This document shows positions 19,728-49,671 of a DNA stretch of 64,000 nt, one piece after another. The position numbers and the translations under genes are program-made. A model generated the notes under the pieces. That model was not told where the DNA came from and ran no database searches. It saw nothing but the letters and a program-made list of their open reading frames with translations. The first letter of the stretch is position 1. Each line of letters begins with the position of its first letter. This DNA comes from a virus: positions 31,662-95,661 of IMG/VR virus record IMGVR_UViG_3300045988_122545; one strand, written 5' to 3'.

Positions 19728-22700
19728 TTAATTAGTAAATGTATATACATTATCATCGTCAAACTTTACTGGACTTTCGTCATCAAACCAATTTTGCGCA
19801 AATATTGGTCCATCAAAAAGTAAACGACTCTTATTTTCTTTTTCTTTTTCTTTTACTACTACATTAAATAATTGTTCACGATAAATCATTACCTACATCA
19901 GAGCCATGACTCTATCGGTATTTATTATATCGTTGTATGCAATTAATTCCTCTAGTAATGGTTCAGATAATATGTTGTATAAGTTCTTTTTGCCATCAGC
20001 ATTTATATCATTCAACCAGTCTTTTATTAATCCTTCACCCCAAGCTTTAATTGATTTATTCATATGGCAACCTTTCTTTCTCTGTACTTTAGAATTACCA
20101 ACAATATCATTGATTATATCTGGTTGATCTGCTAGTAAATAATCACAATGTTTGTTAGCAAAGTAAACGAATAAGCCTTTATTCTGATTTTCATACATTG
20201 CTCTGGCATTATAGTATATCAACAACTTACGAACATTTTCGTAGAAATCATCTGCTGCTTGAGGTCTACCAGTATATTCTGCAACAATTATATCTGAATA
20301 AGATTCTATATTCTATATTCTTTTATATATGATACACGAACCTAATGAATTTGTTCCTGACTAATCATGGTCATATGGGTCAATTCCTGCAATATATAAA
20401 CCAAATGGTGCATCTTTCATAGGATGTTCCCATATAACTATAGAACCAGTAGGATCATCATCTTTATTTAGAGGATAATGTGTAATATCTCCTGTCTTTT
20501 TAATTACCCAACTAATATTTCCATCAGGTGTTTGTACTAAATCACCTATTTGTTTATGATTCTATAGCTGTTTATTTGTACGTATTCTAGCCAACTATTC
20601 CTATAGCTCTTTCTTAGGAAATATGTTTCCTCCAAATTCCAAACAAGCTTCTGCTGGAGTAATACATCTTTCACAAACATACCTATCTACTGCTACTGAA
20701 TTAGTAGCATTTTGTATCATTTCTTTACGTTGCTCCAATATAAAATCTAGAGAAGGTTTACGTAATGTATTACCATCATTATCCATATAAATACGATTAC
20801 ATTTATCATCTCTAATATCCATATTAGCGTACTATGGTATAAAGAATCCACACGTACTAGTTACTGCATTTTCATCCCATATATTCTATAATTCTACACA
20901 GTTATATCCTTTTGGTTTATAGAACATATCTTTCAATGTAGCAAAGTTTGATTCTTCATCTCCACCAGTATTATGTGTTACAATACCATTTACAATATAA
21001 TTATGCTGTTCTTTAGCAGTAATGTTATATATATCTTGTATACCGATATCTGTTATATTTGTGATTTTATCTGCAACTATTCCACAAAGATATTTATTAT
21101 ATTTTGGTAACTCGGACTGAATAAATAAATAAATTAAATCCAGTGCTGCTGATTTTCTAGAAACTGTTAATTTTATATGTTGAGAAAATCTACCTAGACT
21201 TACCACATCAGCAATTTCTAATCGATATTCGCCGTTTTTATCAGAAATAAAATGATCCTTGTATTTCCTAATTCTATTAGTAGGTTTAATATAACGAATA
21301 ATCCCATGTATACCAAAATGCAACAACGCTTCTTGTACCTAAAGTAATATGTCTTTCTAACACTACGTTAATACTATTCTGGCTCGTTTTTTACTAAAGT
21401 GTATGTACCCATCAGTATCGTATAATCCGCCAATTAATTCACTTATTGTATATTCATCATAACTATTGAAATCTATAGGCAGACGTTTATTACCTTTAGT
21501 TTGTCCATATATACCTAATTTTCTTAGCTATTTGCATATTCCTTTTATACGGATTTCTTGATAATTCTTATTATCTTTAGTAGTATATTGTTTTTCAATA
21601 ACTGTATCGAAATGAGAATGAACATAATCTAATATTTCCTATTCGCAATTACTTAGTATGGGCGTTTTATTATTTCCATAGCTTCCGTCGCCTATTAACC
21701 ATCCTATAAATCTAGGTTCCCACATTACGTTTTTGCCAAATATAGGGATCTAATCTATCAAACCTACTTGGTCTCCTATTTTACATTTTTGTGCTTCGTG
21801 CCATAACCAAGACTTCATACGTTCGTTTTCAAATCTTTTTCCAGAAACACGTTTTGTCCTACCAGGAGTAGACCATAATAAAGGATGGTCTTTACTACAT
21901 CTTATTGTTCTACCCGATTGTAATTCTATTTGAACACATTCTTTCTATGATATCGGATTAATGTTTTCTATGTTTTGTATAGACGCCTGATAGGTATCCC
22001 ATCCAATTATACCATCTTCTTGTTTTAAATTCTCTATATTAATACAATTACCGTCTGATGTCCATACTCTAGATCCTTTGCACACACATCCAAATGCTAT
22101 CATGGTACCAAATGCTACACCATCAACTTCAACAGACGGTCTAGCAATTTGCCATGCTGCACCTAATTCTTTAAATGAACCAGCTTCTTCGAATAAGATT
22201 AGTTTTGCTTTCTTACCACGGACTATATCAGGATTATCCTTAAGAGTAACACCAATTATTTCTGATTTATAACCTAATTCTACTTCATTACCAAATTCAT
22301 CTTTAGTAAAGAATCCAGCTCTTTTACGCATTGCTGTATTAACAGATCTTTTCTTACCCCATGCAGTATTCTTATCGATAAAGTCCATGTAATCCCACGC
22401 TTTAGTAAGAATACCATCATCTGTTAAGTATTGTTTATTTGAAGCATATACATAGGATTTAGAATTAGGAATAAGGTAGTAATTACGACATAACATAGAA
22501 CCACCTTTATAACTATTATGAGTGGGTATAAAATCTTTTGTTATATATAAATGATTTTCGTTATCGATGCATAAGCATCGTTGTTTTTCAAATTTGCCAG
22601 TTCTACGAATTGCTTTTATTCCGATACCATTATAATTATACTTTCTATCTTTACGAATTTTCTCCAATTTTCTAGGAAGTTTAAAGATATCTTCTTGTGT

Positions 22701-23948
22701 AGTAATACACAATTCCCAATGAGGTAAAGTATTAGATTTGCAACCGTTATTAAATTCTACTCCAAATCTACCTTCTATTTCTTTAGATTTGTGACATCTT
22801 ATACCGAGACTTCTTAATACAAATTGTAAATCATCAATTAATTGTTCTGAAGTTGATACGAACGTAGAAGCGCCATTTGTAATGCTACCGTCAGTATCCA
22901 TTAAACCTCGTACCAATTCAAATCGATTTTCAACAGAAGTGTATTTGTAATTTTCAGGAATAAATTTTTTATTTGCTTTTACTTTTATTCCTAATTTTTT
23001 TAATTCTCTATTTAAATTATTATGTTTTTTATCTTTTGATATTATTACGTAAGCATATTTATCGGATTCTATTTTTTTAATAATATAATCTGGTAATCTA
23101 CGTGATAACTCTTCTACGATAAATTGATCGGCTGTAGAAAATCTAACTTGTGATCCACATATGTATCCATCTCCTAGTAATACACCTAATACATAAGGAT
23201 CAATGTGTATTGGTTTTTCATCAAATCGTAAAGGATTTATAGCAGGTACTTTATAAGGATAATGCTCTTTTCCTTTTGAACCTTGTGTTAATTTGCGTTT
23301 AGCATATTCTTTAGTAGGCATTATATAAAATTTCTTACCGTTTCTGCACGTAGCCCATAAATGATTAGCTCCGCATCTAACAACACGACCATCTTGAAAT
23401 TCAACTTCGTATACTTCTTGAATACCTTGTTCTACAATATCTCCAATTTTAACAGGACTACCGTTAGGATTCATTACCATATCACCAACTTTTAAAGATC
23501 CCATTTGAACAAAACCGTTCGGCGTTAATACTTCTTCAGAATAAGGTTGTTCATATCCTTTACGTCTACTTTTAAGTACGCATAAATGCTTACCTGATTC
23601 CTCAGCATCCTAGATGGTTTGAAAATAAAAATAGTCGTAATCCCAGAAATCAGGGAATGCGACTTCCTAGACAGTCACGATTTTATCTTTACCATGTCTG
23701 TCTTTTATCTTCTTATTTACAGATCTATTAATAGGACAAAAGTTTAAATAGAAATAATTATAACCACTAATCCAATCTCCATCTTCTGCTGTATATCCTT
23801 CCAAACATCTACGTTTCTATTCATCCCAGTAAGAGAAATATTCTGAAGTATTAGATGCATAATTACAGTATTTACCTGTCTATTCAAACGTAATAGCTGG
23901 TTCTCTGAATTTATTACTATTTGCTATTTTTTTATTAAAGTCTACCAT
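19728..23948 (-). CDS. terL: Terminase large subunit interrupted by two inteins (1406 codons; about 690 extein codons; 19 in-frame TAG)
   Basis: ATG 23946-23948 to TAA 19728-19730. One frame links ORFs 21945..23504, 20886..21326, 20601..20822 and 19893..20225 with only TAG between them. Extein motifs: VLKSRRKG (P-loop region), LILFEEAGSF (Walker-B-like), and MIAFG/TGGDEE restored on removing intein 2. Confidence 0.8.
20970..22088 (-). mobile_element. terL intein 2 (373 codons), class-1 with LAGLIDADG endonuclease; contains 7 in-frame TAG
   Basis: Starts at Cys (CVCKGSRVWTSDG) right after MIAFG and ends ...GIVTHN followed by T(GGDEE). LAGLIDADG motifs FIGWLIGDGSY and LIGGLYDTDGYI. TAG at 21945, 21750, 21639, 21528, 21363, 21357 and 21339. 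Confidence 0.75.
22515..23552 (-). mobile_element. terL intein 1 (about 346 codons) with LAGLIDADG endonuclease; class-3-like; no TAG
   Basis: Ends ...DFIPTHN followed by S(YKGGSM). N-terminal block EQPYSEEVLTPNG aligns with the canonical C.SYETEILT..G block but lacks Cys1, so the boundary is uncertain by a few codons. LAGLIDADG motifs VLGVLLGDGYI and LVRGLMDTDGSI. Confidence 0.65.
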
Positions 23949-23963
23949 TACTGCGCGCTTATT

Positions 23964-23998
23964 AAAAAACTCCCTACCGATAAAGGAAGGGAGTTTTT
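23964..23998 (-). terminator. Bidirectional rho-independent terminator between the tRNA genes and terL
   Basis: 8-bp stem AACTCCCT/AGGGAGTT (23968..23995), flanked by an A-run (a U6 tail on the minus-strand RNA) and by T5 on the plus strand. Confidence 0.65.
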
Positions 23999-24077
23999 GT
24001 GAGTATTTATTTTCTTATCTAAAAATTTACACTATGAAAGTTTTGATAACTTTTTAAATTTTTCATTTAACTTGTAG

Positions 24078-24145
24078 TTCCACAGGTTGGGCTTGAACCA
24101 ACATCACCGTTCCCTATGGACGTGACTTACTTAGTCGACTGTGGA
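24078..24145 (-). ncRNA. tRNA-like gene (68 nt) with an aberrant anticodon arm
   Basis: Perfect 7-bp acceptor stem (TCCACAG/CTGTGGA) and T arm GTTGG-TTCAAGC-CCAAC. Short D arm GACT-AAGTA-AGTC. The anticodon region CGTCC-ATAG-GGAACG cannot form a 5-bp stem with a 7-nt loop. Confidence 0.4.
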
Positions 24146-24215
24146 TAATAGAATATGTTGATTAATTTTTATTTTTTATGACAAAAACTTTTTTCAAAAA
24201 ATTTTATATTTTTTG

Positions 24216-24303
24216 TCGCGGTGGTAGGAGTCAAACCCACCCGGTCGGCTTCAGAAGCCACACTGTTTTAGAGACAGTCCATGCAATCGTACATCACACC
24301 GCG
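24216..24303 (-). tRNA. Amber suppressor tRNA, anticodon CUA, 88 nt with long (about 21 nt) variable arm
   Basis: Acceptor CGCGGTG/CACCGCG. Anticodon arm ACTGT-CTCTAAA-ACAGT (U33, CTA at 34-36 = plus-strand 24269..24271, A37). Variable arm GGCTT-CTG-AAGCC. T arm GTGGG-TTTGACT-CCTAC. Discriminator A. No encoded CCA. Confidence 0.8.
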
Positions 24304-24429
24304 TAACCGGAGTTCTTTAAAGTCTACTCCGAAAAGACTATTTTAACCCATAACCAAAAAATACCTAGTTTATGAAAACTATTTCATTTATAACGTTAAA
24401 AAAGTGTATCGACAATCGTCGAAAATTAA

Positions 24430-24576
24430 TTAAAGACCTAACATGCGTTTAAACCAGTTCTTCTTAGGTAAACCAAGTTGTTTACGCGCATTCAAATCTG
24501 CTTCAATAGCAGCATTAATTTCCCAAACTGTAACGCAATTTGTCAAATCCAAAATATAAGTATCATTCTTTTTCAT
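24430..24576 (-). CDS. Hypothetical small protein (48 aa)
   Basis: ATG 24574-24576 to TAA 24430-24432 (MKKNDTYILDLTNC...). Below the track cutoff. Last gene of the middle block. Confidence 0.4.
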   Translation of the reverse strand: MKKNDTYILDLTNCVTVWEINAAIEADLNARKQLGLPKKNWFKRMLGL

Positions 24577-26400: not shown

Positions 26401-28302
26401 TTATTTTATTTTATCTTTAATTTTATCATATAATTTATCAGCTAAGTAAGCAGCATCAGGATGTACTCCAGTGGCACCATATTTAGGACTACGTAACTTA
26501 AAGAATCCTTTCCAATCTGATTCAAATCCTGTCATTACTAATTCCGTTTTTAAAGCATTTGGTAATACTTGTCTAGCTTGTTGAGGCTTCCAACTTTCAC
26601 TAAGTAATGTAAAATACATAGATTCAGCAAATTCTAAAGATTGTTTGAAATAGTAGAAACACTCATTATCATCGGCTACTATTTCTCCAAACTTATTTAC
26701 TTCTGCCCAACTTGGTATAATAAATGTAATTTCATTATTAAACTTACTCTTACTATAATTACAGTATCTAGTAGATTCCATAGCAAAACTAAATACACGA
26801 TGTCTTACAAATTCATGTGATACACCTCTATCGCAAGTCCATTTAACGGTAATACGTTTTTCATGATATTCAGTTGGTTCACAGATATATTGTAAATCAT
26901 CTAACCAATTGTTTTCAACAAGTACACGTAGATTGGTTGTTACATAGTTATGAAACATTCCGTTTTCTTCAATCACTGCTAGTCTCGAATACTTATTCAT
27001 AGCATAGTCTTCTACAGCACAAAAATCTCTAGCGGAATTTGGTAAATCCAAGTAAACAGTACCATGTTCAAGCATAGCTCCATGACCAGATTTAATCATT
27101 CTATCAACAAATGCCTTAGCACTATCTTCAGTAATCTTATCTTCGGATTTATAACAATTACCAATCCAGCATGTCTTGCCGTTAAACCGTATACATATTA
27201 TACCATTATTTGTTTGTGTGCAATAAACGGTTGTAACAAGATGTGTTGTGCGAATATGTTTTCTAGAATCTATTATCCAAGAATCTCGCATATGTTCTTG
27301 TATATAACATTTTTGTGATATTTCTGGATCATAACTTATTGTCGCATTTCTTCCTTTTAAGATGAATAGTTCCTGTATTTCGTTTAGTAAACGTATACTT
27401 ACAGATAAATATCTATTAATTCTAGTTTTATTATGAGATCCATCACCTAAATATAGTATACGCAGAAAATGATCGATTTGTCTAACAGATAAATTTCGAA
27501 ACCATTCTGGTAAATGTTTGTTCTGTGAATATCTTCCACACATTTCTTCGAACCATTCTACATAACATTGATTTCCAAACTTTATCCATTTTATATTTGG
27601 TTTCCGTCTATCGAAATCAATATAATAATGTATATGTTCGTTTTTCAATGCGTTTATTACTAATTCGTATAACTCATTATTTTCATCTTGAGTTATACAT
27701 ATATAACTACCGGAATTATATTTTTCTCCATGAAATGTATGTCCTTCAGTTATATAAGCCGCAAGTATAGTTAATATATCGTCGTTTACATTAAAACTTT
27801 CTGTGGTATTATATTCTCTATTTCCACCATTCATTTTCTTAGTATACACGATATGTTCTTCAAAATCATTAATTTTGTATACTGCTCCATTAAAATATTT
27901 AGGTATTCTAAATCTATTTCTTTTTCCTGGATTATGTCCATATACTAATTGTTTAGCGTTTAGAAAAGTATATTGTCTTGCATTAACTGGAGATTGATAA
28001 ATACGATGATCTTCTGTTACAAGAAAATTTATATTTGCGTGAGTACATTCTACTCCGTCATTATCATAAGGTTTACTAAATATATTTGGTGCTTCATATT
28101 CCAATATATTTTTATCAGGATTATAAGTTAATACTCTATCTTTATTATTATCTATTTCATCAATATATATAAAACCTCTATCAGTTAATACTTCAGTATC
28201 TTCTGTAAAGCATGTTCGACCAGCTAATTCTATTTGTTTATACATACCTTCTAATCCAGGTTGCTGTTCAATTATTTCTACGTTTGGTTTTATCAATTTC
28301 AT
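26401..28302 (-). CDS. thyX: FAD-dependent thymidylate synthase ThyX (or a ThyX-family pyrimidine-modifying enzyme) interrupted by an intein
   Basis: Exteins give ...IELAGRT/CYKSEDK...GHGAMLEH...HEFVRHRVFSFAMESTRY (the ThyX RHR..S....S.RY motif). Confidence 0.8.
   Translation of the reverse strand: MKLIKPNVEIIEQQPGLEGMYKQIELAGRTCFTEDTEVLTDRGFIYIDEIDNNKDRVLTYNPDKNILEYEAPNIFSKPYDNDGVECTHANINFLVTEDHRIYQSPVNARQYTFLNAKQLVYGHNPGKRNRFRIPKYFNGAVYKINDFEEHIVYTKKMNGGNREYNTTESFNVNDDILTILAAYITEGHTFHGEKYNSGSYICITQDENNELYELVINALKNEHIHYYIDFDRRKPNIKWIKFGNQCYVEWFEEMCGRYSQNKHLPEWFRNLSVRQIDHFLRILYLGDGSHNKTRINRYLSVSIRLLNEIQELFILKGRNATISYDPEISQKCYIQEHMRDSWIIDSRKHIRTTHLVTTVYCTQTNNGIICIRFNGKTCWIGNCYKSEDKITEDSAKAFVDRMIKSGHGAMLEHGTVYLDLPNSARDFCAVEDYAMNKYSRLAVIEENGMFHNYVTTNLRVLVENNWLDDLQYICEPTEYHEKRITVKWTCDRGVSHEFVRHRVFSFAMESTRYCNYSKSKFNNEITFIIPSWAEVNKFGEIVADDNECFYYFKQSLEFAESMYFTLLSESWKPQQARQVLPNALKTELVMTGFESDWKGFFKLRSPKYGATGVHPDAAYLADKLYDKIKDKIK
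27157..28212 (-). mobile_element. thyX intein (352 codons) with LAGLIDADG-type endonuclease
   Basis: Starts CFTEDTEVLTDRGF after AGRT and ends ...TCWIGN followed by C(YKS). Motifs LAAYITEGH and ILYLGDGSH. Penultimate residue is Gly, not His. No TAG. Confidence 0.75.
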
Positions 28303-31541: not shown

Positions 31542-31709
31542 AATTATAAAATTTTGAGGGTTAACAATATTGTTAATAACTACTTTTTATAATACCCCCA
31601 GAAGTAGTTGAAACTGTGCTAGCCTACGATCTAGACCATCATTAGCTGTATTAATCAGTACATATCGTATCTTAAAAGATCTCAGTTTGTATTTTATCTG
31701 ATTAGTGAC

Positions 31710-33466: not shown

Positions 33467-33682
33467 ATGAGTTTAGTAAGAGAGACATTAAATCTTGGCG
33501 TACAAGAAGCTAAAGATTTAGTAGATTCTTATCCAGTAAAAATTGATTTATCAGAATATTCAAATTCAATTAAACCTGAAGAATATAAAAACTTTGCAAA
33601 GATGCTAGAAGAAAAAGGAGCAATCGTAACTCTAGAACAAAAAAGAGCAATAAATAGAAGACCGTTATCAATACGTCGTTAA
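33467..33682 (+). CDS. Ribosomal protein bL12 (L7/L12) C-terminal-domain-like protein (71 aa)
   Basis: VRETLNLGVQEAKDLVDSYP......(E)EYKNFAKMLEEKGAIVTLE parallels the bL12 CTD consensus (V)RE.TGLGLKEAKDLVE.AP......EEAE..KKKLEEAGA.V.L. Confidence 0.55.
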   Translation: MSLVRETLNLGVQEAKDLVDSYPVKIDLSEYSNSIKPEEYKNFAKMLEEKGAIVTLEQKRAINRRPLSIRR

Positions 33683-34370: not shown

Positions 34371-34456
34371 GCTCGAATGGCGAAATAGGTAGACGCGTCA
34401 GACTTAAAATCTGATGAGCAGTAATGTTCGTGCGGGTTCAACTCCCGCTTCGAGTA
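34371..34456 (+). tRNA. tRNA-Leu (anticodon UAA), type II
   Basis: Acceptor GCTCGAA/TTCGAGT. D arm GCG-AAATAGGTAGA-CGC. Anticodon arm TCAGA-CTTAAAA-TCTGA. Long variable arm. T arm GCGGG-TTCAACT-CCCGC. Discriminator A. Confidence 0.85.
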
Positions 34457-34551
34457 CAATTCTAAATCCATACTTATAGCAAATAACACCATCTGTGAAG
34501 ACCGTGTTATTCATTCAAAAATATCTACACTGTGTGAATCAGTGTCAACTT

Positions 34552-34681
34552 TGTGGGGCTTATATCTAAAGAGCGCACTTAAATAGAGCTATTATCAATA
34601 GAAGGAGCGTTAGTTGCAAATAACAAACCGGAAATTCTTTTTAGTTAAGTTTAAGCTTTAGTATTAGTGCAGAGTAATATC
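34552..34681 (+). ncRNA. Candidate structured RNA module, copy 1 (TGTGGGG ... TAGTGCAGAGTAATATC)
   Basis: Shares 5' and 3' boxes with copies at 34826 and 36693. The closing stem 34562-71/34656-64 covaries with copy 2. Confidence 0.4.
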
Positions 34682-34825
34682 AAAGACAGAGTATATACCT
34701 GTAGTTATACTCAAGTAAACTACTAACTACAGAACTGGTCATCCTGGTACAGGGAAGGCAGACCAGAGAGAGGTTTCGGAAGTAGTACCTCTCTCGCTCT
34801 TTATGGTGAGAATCCATAACAAGCA

Positions 34826-34917
34826 TGTGGGGCTTATGTCTAATCAGATCAGAGGGCATTATTAATGTCGTTTAATGGTAGGTGGAGGAGATTAGCATTA
34901 GTGCAGACGTTAAAATC
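34826..34917 (+). ncRNA. Candidate structured RNA module, copy 2
   Basis: TGTGGGGCTT... stem 34836-45/34890-98 ...TAGTGCAGACGTTAAAATC. Confidence 0.4.
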
Positions 34918-35118
34918 ATGCAAAAAGATAGTGTTATGTTCAGTCTTATTCTACAATCTTTTAGTAAATCGGTACTATCTTTTTATTTTACCCAAGCGTG
35001 GGTCGTCCTTATTCATTGACCCTTGAATAGATGAAAATTCTGAACATCTGTAAAGTATAATGGCTTGTGAAAGTCGTTATACTTTTTTAATTAGAATAAT
35101 CAAAGCGTTGATTAGACG

Positions 35119-36658: not shown

Positions 36659-36692
36659 ATAAAATAAAAACGTCATCAGAAAATGACAAACA

Positions 36693-36796
36693 TGTGGGGT
36701 GTAAGTAATATTTTACATTTTATAAAGAAAAAGTGGATTGTAAAGCTTTATAAAATGCGTATCCATAAATATTATGATCATGCGGACGTTAAAATC
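36693..36796 (+). ncRNA. Candidate structured RNA module, copy 3
   Basis: TGTGGGGTGT... stem 36706-12/36768-74 ...ATGCGGACGTTAAAATC. Confidence 0.4.
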
Positions 36797-37003
36797 ATGT
36801 ACTCCAATAAGATTGGTTTGACAGCCTTTCTGCTTATGAGTTAAAACTATAGTGAGAGTCATAAAACCTAATCTAAAAAAGCAATAAAAATAAAGGTGTA
36901 GAAGTCTAACTAAAACAGTATGGTGTAACAAATAAACAAATCCCTGCCATACCAGGGTCGTCGTCAACCAATTTATTAACCAAAACTTTAAAATTATGTA
37001 AGA

Positions 37004-40033: not shown

Positions 40034-40159
40034 GGGATATTAGTTTAACGGTAGAACAAAGCGTTTCGAAAGAATCGATGATTATGAATAACATTAAATT
40101 CAGCAAGAACGAAGTTATTATAATCCGCTTGAGCATGGGTTCGATTCCCATATATTCCA
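40034..40159 (+). tRNA. tRNA-Arg(UCG)-like gene carrying a ~55-nt insertion in the anticodon arm
   Basis: Acceptor GGGATAT/ATATTCC. D arm GTTT-AACGGTA-GAAC. Anticodon stem AAGCG (40059-63) pairs with CGCTT (40126-30). TTTCGAA follows the 5' strand. 40071..40125 is extra and folds as a 12-13-bp helix. T arm ATGGG-TTCGATT-CCCAT. Confidence 0.5.
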
Positions 40160-40457: not shown

Positions 40458-40525
40458 AGTAGAATCGACTAATGGATAAGTCGTCTCCAAAGGAGAAAAT
40501 GCGGGTTCGAATCCCGCTACTACTC
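40458..40525 (+). ncRNA. tRNA-like gene (68 nt) with a 13-nt anticodon arm
   Basis: Acceptor AGTAGAA/TACTACT (1 mismatch). D arm GACT-AATGGATA-AGTC with GG. T arm GCGGG-TTCGAAT-CCCGC. The anticodon region is TCTCC-AAA-GGAGA only. Confidence 0.4.
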
Positions 40526-49584: not shown

Positions 49585-49655
49585 ACTTCTGTAGCTTAAC
49601 GGTAAAGCATTATTCTAACTAAATAAGATTATGGGTTCGAATCCCGTCAGAAGTC
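49585..49655 (+). tRNA. tRNA (71 nt) with atypical anticodon loop CTAACTA (nominal anticodon AAC, Val)
   Basis: Acceptor ACTTCTG/CAGAAGT. D arm GCTT-AACGGTA-AAGC. Anticodon arm TTATT-CTAACTA-AATAA. T arm ATGGG-TTCGAAT-CCCGT. U33 is present, but A34 and U37 are unusual. Confidence 0.6.
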
Positions 49656-49671
49656 CTAAATTAGGAATTAT

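Follow-up and report, generated by a model that had tools for sequence, protein, structure and literature searches.

Which amino acid is delivered by an amber suppressor transfer RNA (tRNA) whose anticodon reads UAG but whose body carries a long extra arm? The question is raised by an 88-nucleotide (nt) gene with a CUA anticodon, on the minus strand at 24216–24303 of a 64,000-nt stretch of viral DNA (IMG/VR record IMGVR_UViG_3300045988_122545, positions 31,662 to 95,661), here called the window, meaning the whole stretch that was analysed. To our knowledge, an extra hairpin arm of this kind has never been seen in glutamine tRNAs, although in crAss-like phages, to which the window belongs, the recoded TAG codon is known as glutamine. 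The original prediction, made from the letters alone, left two ways out of this conflict: either a leucine, serine or tyrosine tRNA had been converted by an anticodon change, in which case TAG would not mean glutamine here, or a glutaminyl-tRNA synthetase (GlnRS) accepts an unusual scaffold. The evidence assembled below favours the second. The tRNA is probably a working amber suppressor, charged with glutamine, likely by the GlnRS of the host, and reading UAG in terL and the virion genes from what would be a divergent body of the glutamine type.

Sequence, fold and conservation of the suppressor

ARAGORN calls three tRNAs in the window, one of them with anticodon cta at 24215–24303 on the minus strand; its label, 'Pyl', reflects the anticodon alone. 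Counting A73, the gene spans 88 nt, with C1 at 24303 and A73 at 24216. Read 5' to 3' on the minus strand, the acceptor strand CGCGGUG (24297–24303), which pairs with CACCGCG at 24217–24223, is followed by two bases (U8 G9) and a D arm AUGU-ACGAUU-GCAU (24281–24294), in which a stem of 4 base pairs (bp), including a U·G pair, closes a 6-nt loop without GG. Two G residues (24279–24280) lead to the anticodon arm ACUGU-CUCUAAA-ACAGU (24262–24278), with CUA at 24271–24269 flanked by U33 and A37, and thence to the variable region GU-GGCUU-CUG-AAGCC-GACCGG (24241–24261), 21 nt long, with its hairpin at 24247–24259 and six unpaired bases on the 3' side of it. The T arm GUGGG-UUUGACU-CCUAC (24224–24240) has U56 where C56 is usual. 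No CCA is encoded, the acceptor stem being followed by A-C-A-A. Length, A73, the U33-CUA-A37 loop, the 21-nt variable region, U56 and the D loop without GG had all been described correctly in the original prediction.

Standard models handle this gene poorly. It escapes the Rfam tRNA model at the gathering score; under relaxed thresholds the best family is tRNA-Sec (RF01852), at 33 bits against a cut-off of 47. A covariance model built in this analysis (R1) scores it at 115.9 bits, and both the cloverleaf and the extra hairpin were recovered independently by RNAalifold. A covariance-based fold might have replaced the long arm with a short variable loop; that of RNAalifold retained the long, hairpin-bearing variable region. 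The folding energy was not significantly better than that of shuffled sequences (z from −1.0 to −1.9), a result that is usual for tRNAs and uninformative. No other copy of the extra hairpin sequence was found in the window, which leaves a repeated mobile element without support.

Three scans of IMG/VR, conducted with separate pieces of the tRNA (the T arm, the D arm and the anticodon/variable junction), returned one identical set of 18 contigs with an identical or near-identical suppressor, and none of the three reached more distant homologues. Metagenomes and genomes were scanned with a loose 16-base D-arm pattern, for which most listed matches are chance and eight loci are real; at least seven metagenome contigs and at least one contig from a metagenome-assembled genome (MAG) carry the suppressor among the matches listed. 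The sole GenBank match in a blastn search is phage cr113_1, where the gene is annotated as tRNA-Gln. Copies remain identical or near-identical across phages whose flanks are 66–82% identical, and in L328 (CALVLC010000113.1) the suppressor is 100% identical to that of the window between flanks of just 74–80% identity. The latter contig, filed under an 'uncultured Bacilli bacterium' MAG, is a crAss-like phage fragment with terL-region homology and is almost certainly mis-binned.

Seven distinct suppressor sequences (those of the window, L117, L067, L080, L001, L086 and L174) were aligned. In this alignment 97.3% of cloverleaf cells are paired, as against 35–49% once the partners are shifted along. 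Every one of the seven acceptor pairs, and one pair of the anticodon stem (28-40, U-A or G-C), changes on both sides, and the observed covariation score was reached by none of 500 shuffles. Since copies are kept across diverged flanks and the acceptor and anticodon-stem changes are compensatory, the suppressor is confirmed as a real, constrained gene, far beyond chance. A fold with a 6-bp T stem and a 6-bp acceptor stem, suggested by free-energy minimization, was rejected, as pair 7-66 covaries and pair 63-81 breaks in L174.

The constraint is unevenly distributed. A73 and the T arm are invariant over all variants, as is the D arm except for its last loop base (U, A or G). The acceptor stem occurs in five versions, each fully paired (CGCGGUG, CGGCGCG, CGGCGUA, UCCCCCG and UCCCCUC), that differ at up to four to six of the seven pairs while the remaining 73 positions are almost invariant; it is the fastest-evolving part of the suppressor, the reverse of the expectation that the acceptor stem carries identity. 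Pair 1-72 is C1-G72 in five of the seven variants, including the window, and U1-A72 in L086 and L174. The D, T and variable helices show no covariation for or against them, with the exception of the fourth pair of the variable helix, which is U-A in the window, L117 and L328 and a C·A mismatch in the other five variants. The 5-bp variable helix initially described is accordingly perfect in those three and interrupted elsewhere; what is conserved is a 7-nt loop closed by an extra helix of 3–4 bp. The absence of GG and the presence of U56 may belong together, since an A19:U56 pair, as we propose, would replace G19:C56; the 6-nt loop would then be numbered A14-C15-G18-A19-U20-U21, with all bases of the proposed pair invariant.

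The meaning of TAG in carrier genomes

The phage that carries the long-armed suppressor is a gut crAss-like phage of the Suoliviridae type. The window has 30% G+C, and its closest GenBank relatives are Suoliviridae (cr115_1, cr113_1 and others), with the similarity lying in terL. Reading through TAG lifts its open reading frame (ORF) coverage from 48.3 kb to 64.0 kb. Upstream of the suppressor, the ORFs on its strand run uninterrupted in the standard code; a dATP/dGTP diphosphohydrolase, a Dam methylase and a ThyX with an intein are among them. By contrast, terL and the genes beyond it have up to 19 TAG codons each. The first heavily recoded late gene is terL itself (19728–23948, minus strand), similar to the terminases of cr115_1 and cr113_1 and with 19 in-frame TAG codons. 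Its ATG start is at 23948, and the suppressor lies 268 nt upstream at the end of the standard-code unit; its placement directly before terL on the same strand had been stated from the outset.

Late ORFs of the window were translated with TAG as X and aligned to related loci, and the codon opposite each TAG was read. These codons are mostly TAG, CAA and CAG, followed by GAA, AAA and AAT, and those for Leu and Tyr are almost absent. Leaving TAG itself aside, glutamine is the most frequent partner at 12 of 41 window sites and at 26 of 38, 22 of 42 and 12 of 25 sites in three further carriers (L067, L080 and L001, respectively), and it ranks first by mean BLOSUM62 score in all four genomes. It also ranks first in all four by likelihood, calculated with empirical substitution profiles from the same alignments; Glu comes second (−9.6 to −60.9 log units), and the deficits with respect to Gln amount to 35–86 log units for Ser, 87–139 for Leu and 112–151 for Tyr. 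Between close carrier pairs CAA or CAG stands opposite TAG at 907 of 1087 codons, and CTA (8), TAT and TAC (2 together) and TCG and TCA (10 together) are rare. Taken together, these codon comparisons show TAG behaving as glutamine in carriers of the long-armed suppressor. Published metaproteomics (PMC9523058) has likewise shown Gln at TAG in another two crAss-like phages, which may or may not carry this tRNA. Code 15 (TAG = Gln) therefore stays the correct translation table for these genomes; judged by its codon usage the code appears ordinary for crAss-like phages, and only the adaptor is unusual.

A suppressor slot upstream of terL

Relatives of terL were collected by a search with a TerL fragment. 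In nearly every one a CUA tRNA is found upstream of terL, most being class-I molecules of 73–78 nt, and the long-armed suppressor always sits in the slot where relatives have theirs. Across 80 TerL relatives this slot was seen to contain at least 10 different CUA tRNA sequences. In the complete genome of cr113_1 (98.6 kb) the long-armed tRNA is the sole CUA tRNA.

Two relatives, L004 and L003, match the window at 96–98% identity for some 20 kb. The match is lost only across window positions 23976–24476 (L004) and 24170–24429 (L003); window 23976–24476 was compared with 7122–7375 of L004 and 1083–1636 of L003. In this gap each has a different class-I CUA tRNA of 73–75 nt, that of L003 with a Gln-like acceptor and D stem. 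Three near-identical phages hence hold three unrelated-looking CUA tRNAs in one intergenic slot. Of the TAG sites of the window, 30 of 32 are shared with L004 and 14 of 14 with L003 (44 of 46 in total), both differences being CAG, and opposite the private TAG codons of these two sisters the window has a Gln codon nine times and a Glu codon once. Because sisters with class-I tRNAs share its TAG sites, the long-armed tRNA appears to be functionally interchangeable with CUA tRNAs of ordinary length, at least one of them Gln-like. The suppressor slot, in other words, turns over between near-identical phages without a change of codon meaning.

Further unusual molecules occupy this slot. Two more types of CUA tRNA in the relatives are missed by ARAGORN and were recovered by R1, one combining a D loop AGCGACUCU with an irregular T arm, the other having a 14-nt D loop and the T loop GGCCGAU; such ARAGORN-missed tRNAs occur in L009, L020 and L045 (at about 6.5–7.1 kb), in L041, L013 and L050, and in L005 and L035. 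The suppressor of the L041/L013 type and that of the window have in common the D-arm motif UGAUGUA(C/U)GAUUG...GCAU and the anticodon loop CUCUAAA. Non-canonical scaffolds may explain why published surveys found suppressors in just ~40% of TAG-recoded phages, and the turnover of the slot, together with this set of non-canonical suppressors, is arguably more interesting than the single gene.

Kinship of the tRNA body

The 'type-II body' of the original prediction holds for the variable region only. With 21 nt and a hairpin of 3–5 bp, the latter without covariation support, this region does exceed 10 nt and form a stem-loop as in class II. The D arm has 4 bp and the 6-nt loop ACGAUU in place of the 3-bp stem and large loop with G18G19 of that class, which the window's own class-II example, tRNA-Leu(UAA) at 34371–34457, displays as GCG, 11 nt with GG, and CGC; the Rfam tRNA model misses the gene, and the codon is not one read as Leu, Ser or Tyr.

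Comparison with a host tRNA-Gln rests on a single chance find with anticodon CUG in an Odoribacteraceae MAG (L247). This Bacteroidales tRNA-Gln and the phage tRNA have in common A73, G2-C71 and C3-G70, of which the other phage variants keep part, as well as U8 G9, C34 U35 and the lack of an encoded CCA. Their D stems (phage AUGU/GCAU, host GUGU/GCAC) and T stems (GUGGG/CCUAC and CUGGG/CCUAG) are alike. They part at the first pair (C1-G72 in the phage, the weak U1-A72 in the host), at pair 10-25 (A-U and G-C), in the D loop (ACGAUU and 7 nt with GG), in the variable region (21 nt and 4 nt) and in the T loop (UUUGACU and UUCGAAU), so that U1-A72, a variable loop of 4–5 nt, G18G19 and C56, all traits of tRNA-Gln, are missing from the phage molecule. 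When D- and T-arm similarity was ranked against 53 tRNAs of the fetched loci, Gln-type tRNAs came first, with one Leu and one Ser tRNA nearly as high. One common type of tRNA in the slot (UGCCCUAUGGUGUAAUGGUUAGCAC...) has an acceptor and D arm almost identical to those of the L247 tRNA-Gln(CUG). From these resemblances we infer that the suppressor is a divergent phage suppressor of the Gln type with a hairpin inserted in its variable loop.

Charging and mechanism

Transcription of the suppressor would accompany that of the standard-code middle genes or follow it shortly. As the gene has no encoded CCA, the tail would have to be added by the host CCA-adding enzyme during maturation, and the host tRNA-Gln gene of L247 likewise encodes none. 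Charging with glutamine would follow, most likely by the host GlnRS, which would approach the tRNA on the side left free by the extra arm and there recognize C34, U35 and A73. In the E. coli GlnRS–tRNA complex the enzyme binds inside the L and keeps clear of the variable loop. Once charged, the suppressor would decode the many in-frame UAG codons of terL and of the virion genes downstream of it. Such decoding would be the known 'code 15' switch of crAss-like phages, operated here by an unusual adaptor that would have acquired a variable-loop hairpin together with a reduced D loop and a T-loop change to match. In the published model suppressor expression licenses late translation, and the position of the gene at the boundary of two coding regimes fits that model.

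That GlnRS should accept such a scaffold is supported from several sides and would fit all the evidence. A Pfam search of the protein-like non-structural ORFs of the window (24.6–61.1 kb) found no aminoacyl-tRNA synthetase, amidotransferase or tRNA enzyme, so that a host charging enzyme is the default. GlnRS reads U35 strongly and is attracted by CUA anticodons, amber versions of tRNA-Trp and tRNA-fMet accept Gln, and changes at two acceptor pairs turned a long-armed amber tRNA-Ser into a Gln acceptor (PMC9976931).

Several observations weigh against this account. A weak 1-72 pair is preferred by the E. coli GlnRS, for which pair 10-25 matters as well (PMC9976931); the window has a strong C1-G72 along with A10-U25, though these are rules of the E. 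coli enzyme and may not be those of Bacteroidales. The acceptor stem, a partial seat of Gln identity in E. coli, is the most variable part of the molecule. Gln leads Glu by no more than 9.6 log units when the window is taken by itself, codon alignments report the residue tolerated over evolution rather than the residue inserted, and many TAG sites were probably inherited from ancestors with Gln-type suppressors. The case for descent from tRNA-Gln, built on brief common motifs and a weak ranking, is suggestive only. Finally, the window covers 64 kb of a genome of ~98 kb, and a second suppressor beyond it is possible for this phage.

Glutamine might also reach the tRNA indirectly, if host glutamyl-tRNA synthetase (GluRS) were to add glutamate and a Glu-tRNA(Gln) amidotransferase to convert it. 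The outcome would again be glutamine, Glu is the second-best fit in the window, and, according to a 2026 preprint, a gene for an amidotransferase subunit is present in a different amber-recoded crAss-like phage without a detectable suppressor. We nonetheless regard this route as improbable, and as less likely than the host GlnRS, since it depends on U1-A72 and U34. Amidotransferases and the tRNA-Gln-specific GluRS need U1-A72, and the window and most variants have C1-G72; GluRS recognition centres on a modified U34, and the phage tRNA has C34 (PMC9976931). Nor did the Pfam search of the non-structural ORFs detect a GatB/amidotransferase domain.

It is similarly unlikely that the gene is a decaying or non-translational tRNA-like element, with suppression provided by a host tRNA or by a phage tRNA outside the window. 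Such decay would agree with a score below the threshold of the Rfam tRNA model, with the non-canonical D and T loops, the lack of an encoded CCA and an unexceptional folding energy (z = −1.9), and other degenerate tRNA-like elements do occur in the window. A decaying gene, however, would hardly keep an invariant body and preserve every acceptor pair by compensatory change, nor would it hold a constant position in the suppressor slot and be the only CUA tRNA of the complete cr113_1 genome, and the missing CCA is equally missing from the Bacteroidales tRNA-Gln gene.

The conversion of a class-II tRNA, which would keep its identity and insert Leu, Tyr or Ser at UAG, has become very improbable. 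It has in its favour the long hairpin of the variable region, an A73 that is also the discriminator of bacterial tRNA-Leu and tRNA-Tyr, the fact that leucyl- and seryl-tRNA synthetases do not read the anticodon (established knowledge; PMC9976931), and the free variation of the acceptor stem, which would be expected if identity lay elsewhere. In contrast, CAA and CAG are what stands opposite TAG, whereas codons for Leu, Tyr and Ser are rare there and far worse in likelihood; 44 of 46 TAG sites are common to sisters with class-I CUA tRNAs; the D arm is one of 4 bp and 6 nt without G18G19, not of 3 bp and 11 nt; and A73 excludes the canonical bacterial tRNA-Ser, which has G73. Alignments, likelihoods, sister sites and D arm alike therefore contradict the suggestion that TAG is not glutamine here.

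An adaptor for a non-standard residue, related to selenocysteine (Sec) or pyrrolysine (Pyl) tRNAs or to the 'allo-tRNAs', is scarcely credible: the best Rfam match to tRNA-Sec, the 'Pyl' label of ARAGORN, the small D loop and the long extra arm are outweighed by a 7/5 acceptor/T geometry, with a seventh pair that covaries, in place of 8/5, 9/4, 8/4 or 9/3, by a tRNA-Sec score below its cut-off and an anticodon CUA rather than UCA, by a 21-nt variable region, 5-bp anticodon stem and two bases between acceptor and D stems where tRNA-Pyl has 3 nt, 6 bp and one base, and by the alignment of TAG with Gln, not with Lys, Cys or Ser.

Returning to charging by the host GlnRS, a more ambitious version of this reading can be offered only tentatively, and we consider it more doubtful than not. 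The molecule would be a natural glutamine adaptor with a class-II-like arm, one of several non-canonical, fast-evolving suppressors that crAss-like phages exchange in the single slot before terL, and its extra arm, re-paired D/T elbow and hypervariable acceptor stem would be adaptive. Such adaptations might evade a host nuclease or defence directed against phage or Gln tRNAs, or else adjust competition, be it with release factor 1 or with the GlnRS of different hosts.

Genomic surroundings of the suppressor

The intergenic region around the suppressor is rich in terminator-like sites, with four in 900 nt where 0.3 would be expected. One hairpin with a U run (23970–23989, minus strand) separates the tRNA(s) from the start codon of terL, and another terminator-like hairpin (24409–24422, minus strand) lies upstream of the suppressor. 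Some 70 nt downstream of the suppressor, at 24077–24145 on the minus strand, is a degenerate tRNA-like element (UCCACAG...CUGUGGA-A-C) with acceptor, D and T arms, A73 and a scrambled anticodon arm, which in the window is called by neither ARAGORN nor Rfam. Its homologue in L328 has a CUG anticodon and an encoded CCA and is called tRNA-Gln by ARAGORN; the element is also present in L003 and absent from L004.

Two intein-like inserts interrupt terL, at approximately residues 170–500 and 645–1015 of the read-through ORF. The ThyX (Thy1) gene at 26401–28302 (minus strand) also has an intein-like interruption, with a weak LAGLIDADG match.

On the plus strand, three Hatchet ribozymes (Rfam, 69–94 bits; 34523–34685, 34797–34921 and 36672–36800) are clustered just after tRNA-Leu(UAA), and cr113_1 has a Hatchet ribozyme together with RAGATH-9 and RAGATH-20 RNAs (L341 3740–6308). 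Rfam further reports two plus-strand elements, at 40034–40159 and 40458–40525, namely a tRNA with a 57-nt intron-like insertion in its anticodon loop and a tRNA-like element with a 3-nt anticodon loop, neither of which is called by ARAGORN. A tRNA with anticodon AAC (Val, with an unusual A34) at 49585–49656 (plus strand) lies directly upstream of a 616-residue ORF; the latter matches the cr113_1 DNA polymerase in position, where a 58-nt tRNA-like match is found (L341 17702–17759). A 71-residue ORF at 33467–33682 (plus strand) has a Pfam match (E = 1.7e-6) to the ribosomal protein L7/L12 C-terminal domain. This domain recruits translation factors, and it is found here in a phage that reprograms termination.

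Implications

In gut phages the recoding of stop codons is regarded as a means of timing the expression of late genes. For surveys of recoding the locus offers concrete cases, with one scaffold missed by Rfam and, in relatives, two further CUA types missed by ARAGORN. Should charging be confirmed, the suppressor would present a natural case of glutamine identity on a long-armed tRNA with an almost free acceptor stem, and would bear on how Bacteroidales GlnRS recognizes its substrates. In that event it might also provide a compact amber-suppressor scaffold for the engineering of Bacteroides.

Comparison with known systems

The nearest functional counterparts are the code-15 suppressors of crAss-like phages (PMC7886860; Borges 2021; PMC9523058), with which the phage tRNA shares its CUA anticodon, its position before recoded late genes and the behaviour of TAG as Gln. 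It differs from them in its 88-nt body, the 21-nt variable region with a hairpin, the 6-nt D loop without GG, U56 and C1-G72, and no description of a long-armed suppressor scaffold in crAss-like phages was found in the searchable recoding literature. With the bacterial class-II tRNAs for Leu, Ser and Tyr, and their suppressor forms supP, supD and supF, it shares a long stem-loop variable region and, as in Leu and Tyr, A73; unlike these, it has no 3-bp D stem with a large GG loop, has six unpaired bases after its hairpin, and appears to decode Gln. A long extra arm and a short D loop are also features of tRNA-Sec and the allo-tRNAs (PMC5389517), although the 7/5 acceptor/T geometry, the CUA anticodon, A73 and a sub-threshold score set the phage tRNA apart from tRNA-Sec.

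The closest precedent for its charging is the engineered amber tRNA-Ser of E. coli (Rogers and Soll 1988, via PMC9976931), a long-armed CUA tRNA charged by GlnRS, for which the arm was no block. That molecule is a laboratory construct with altered pairs 1-72 and 3-70, whereas the phage tRNA is natural, conserved and, in cr113_1, the sole suppressor of a phage.

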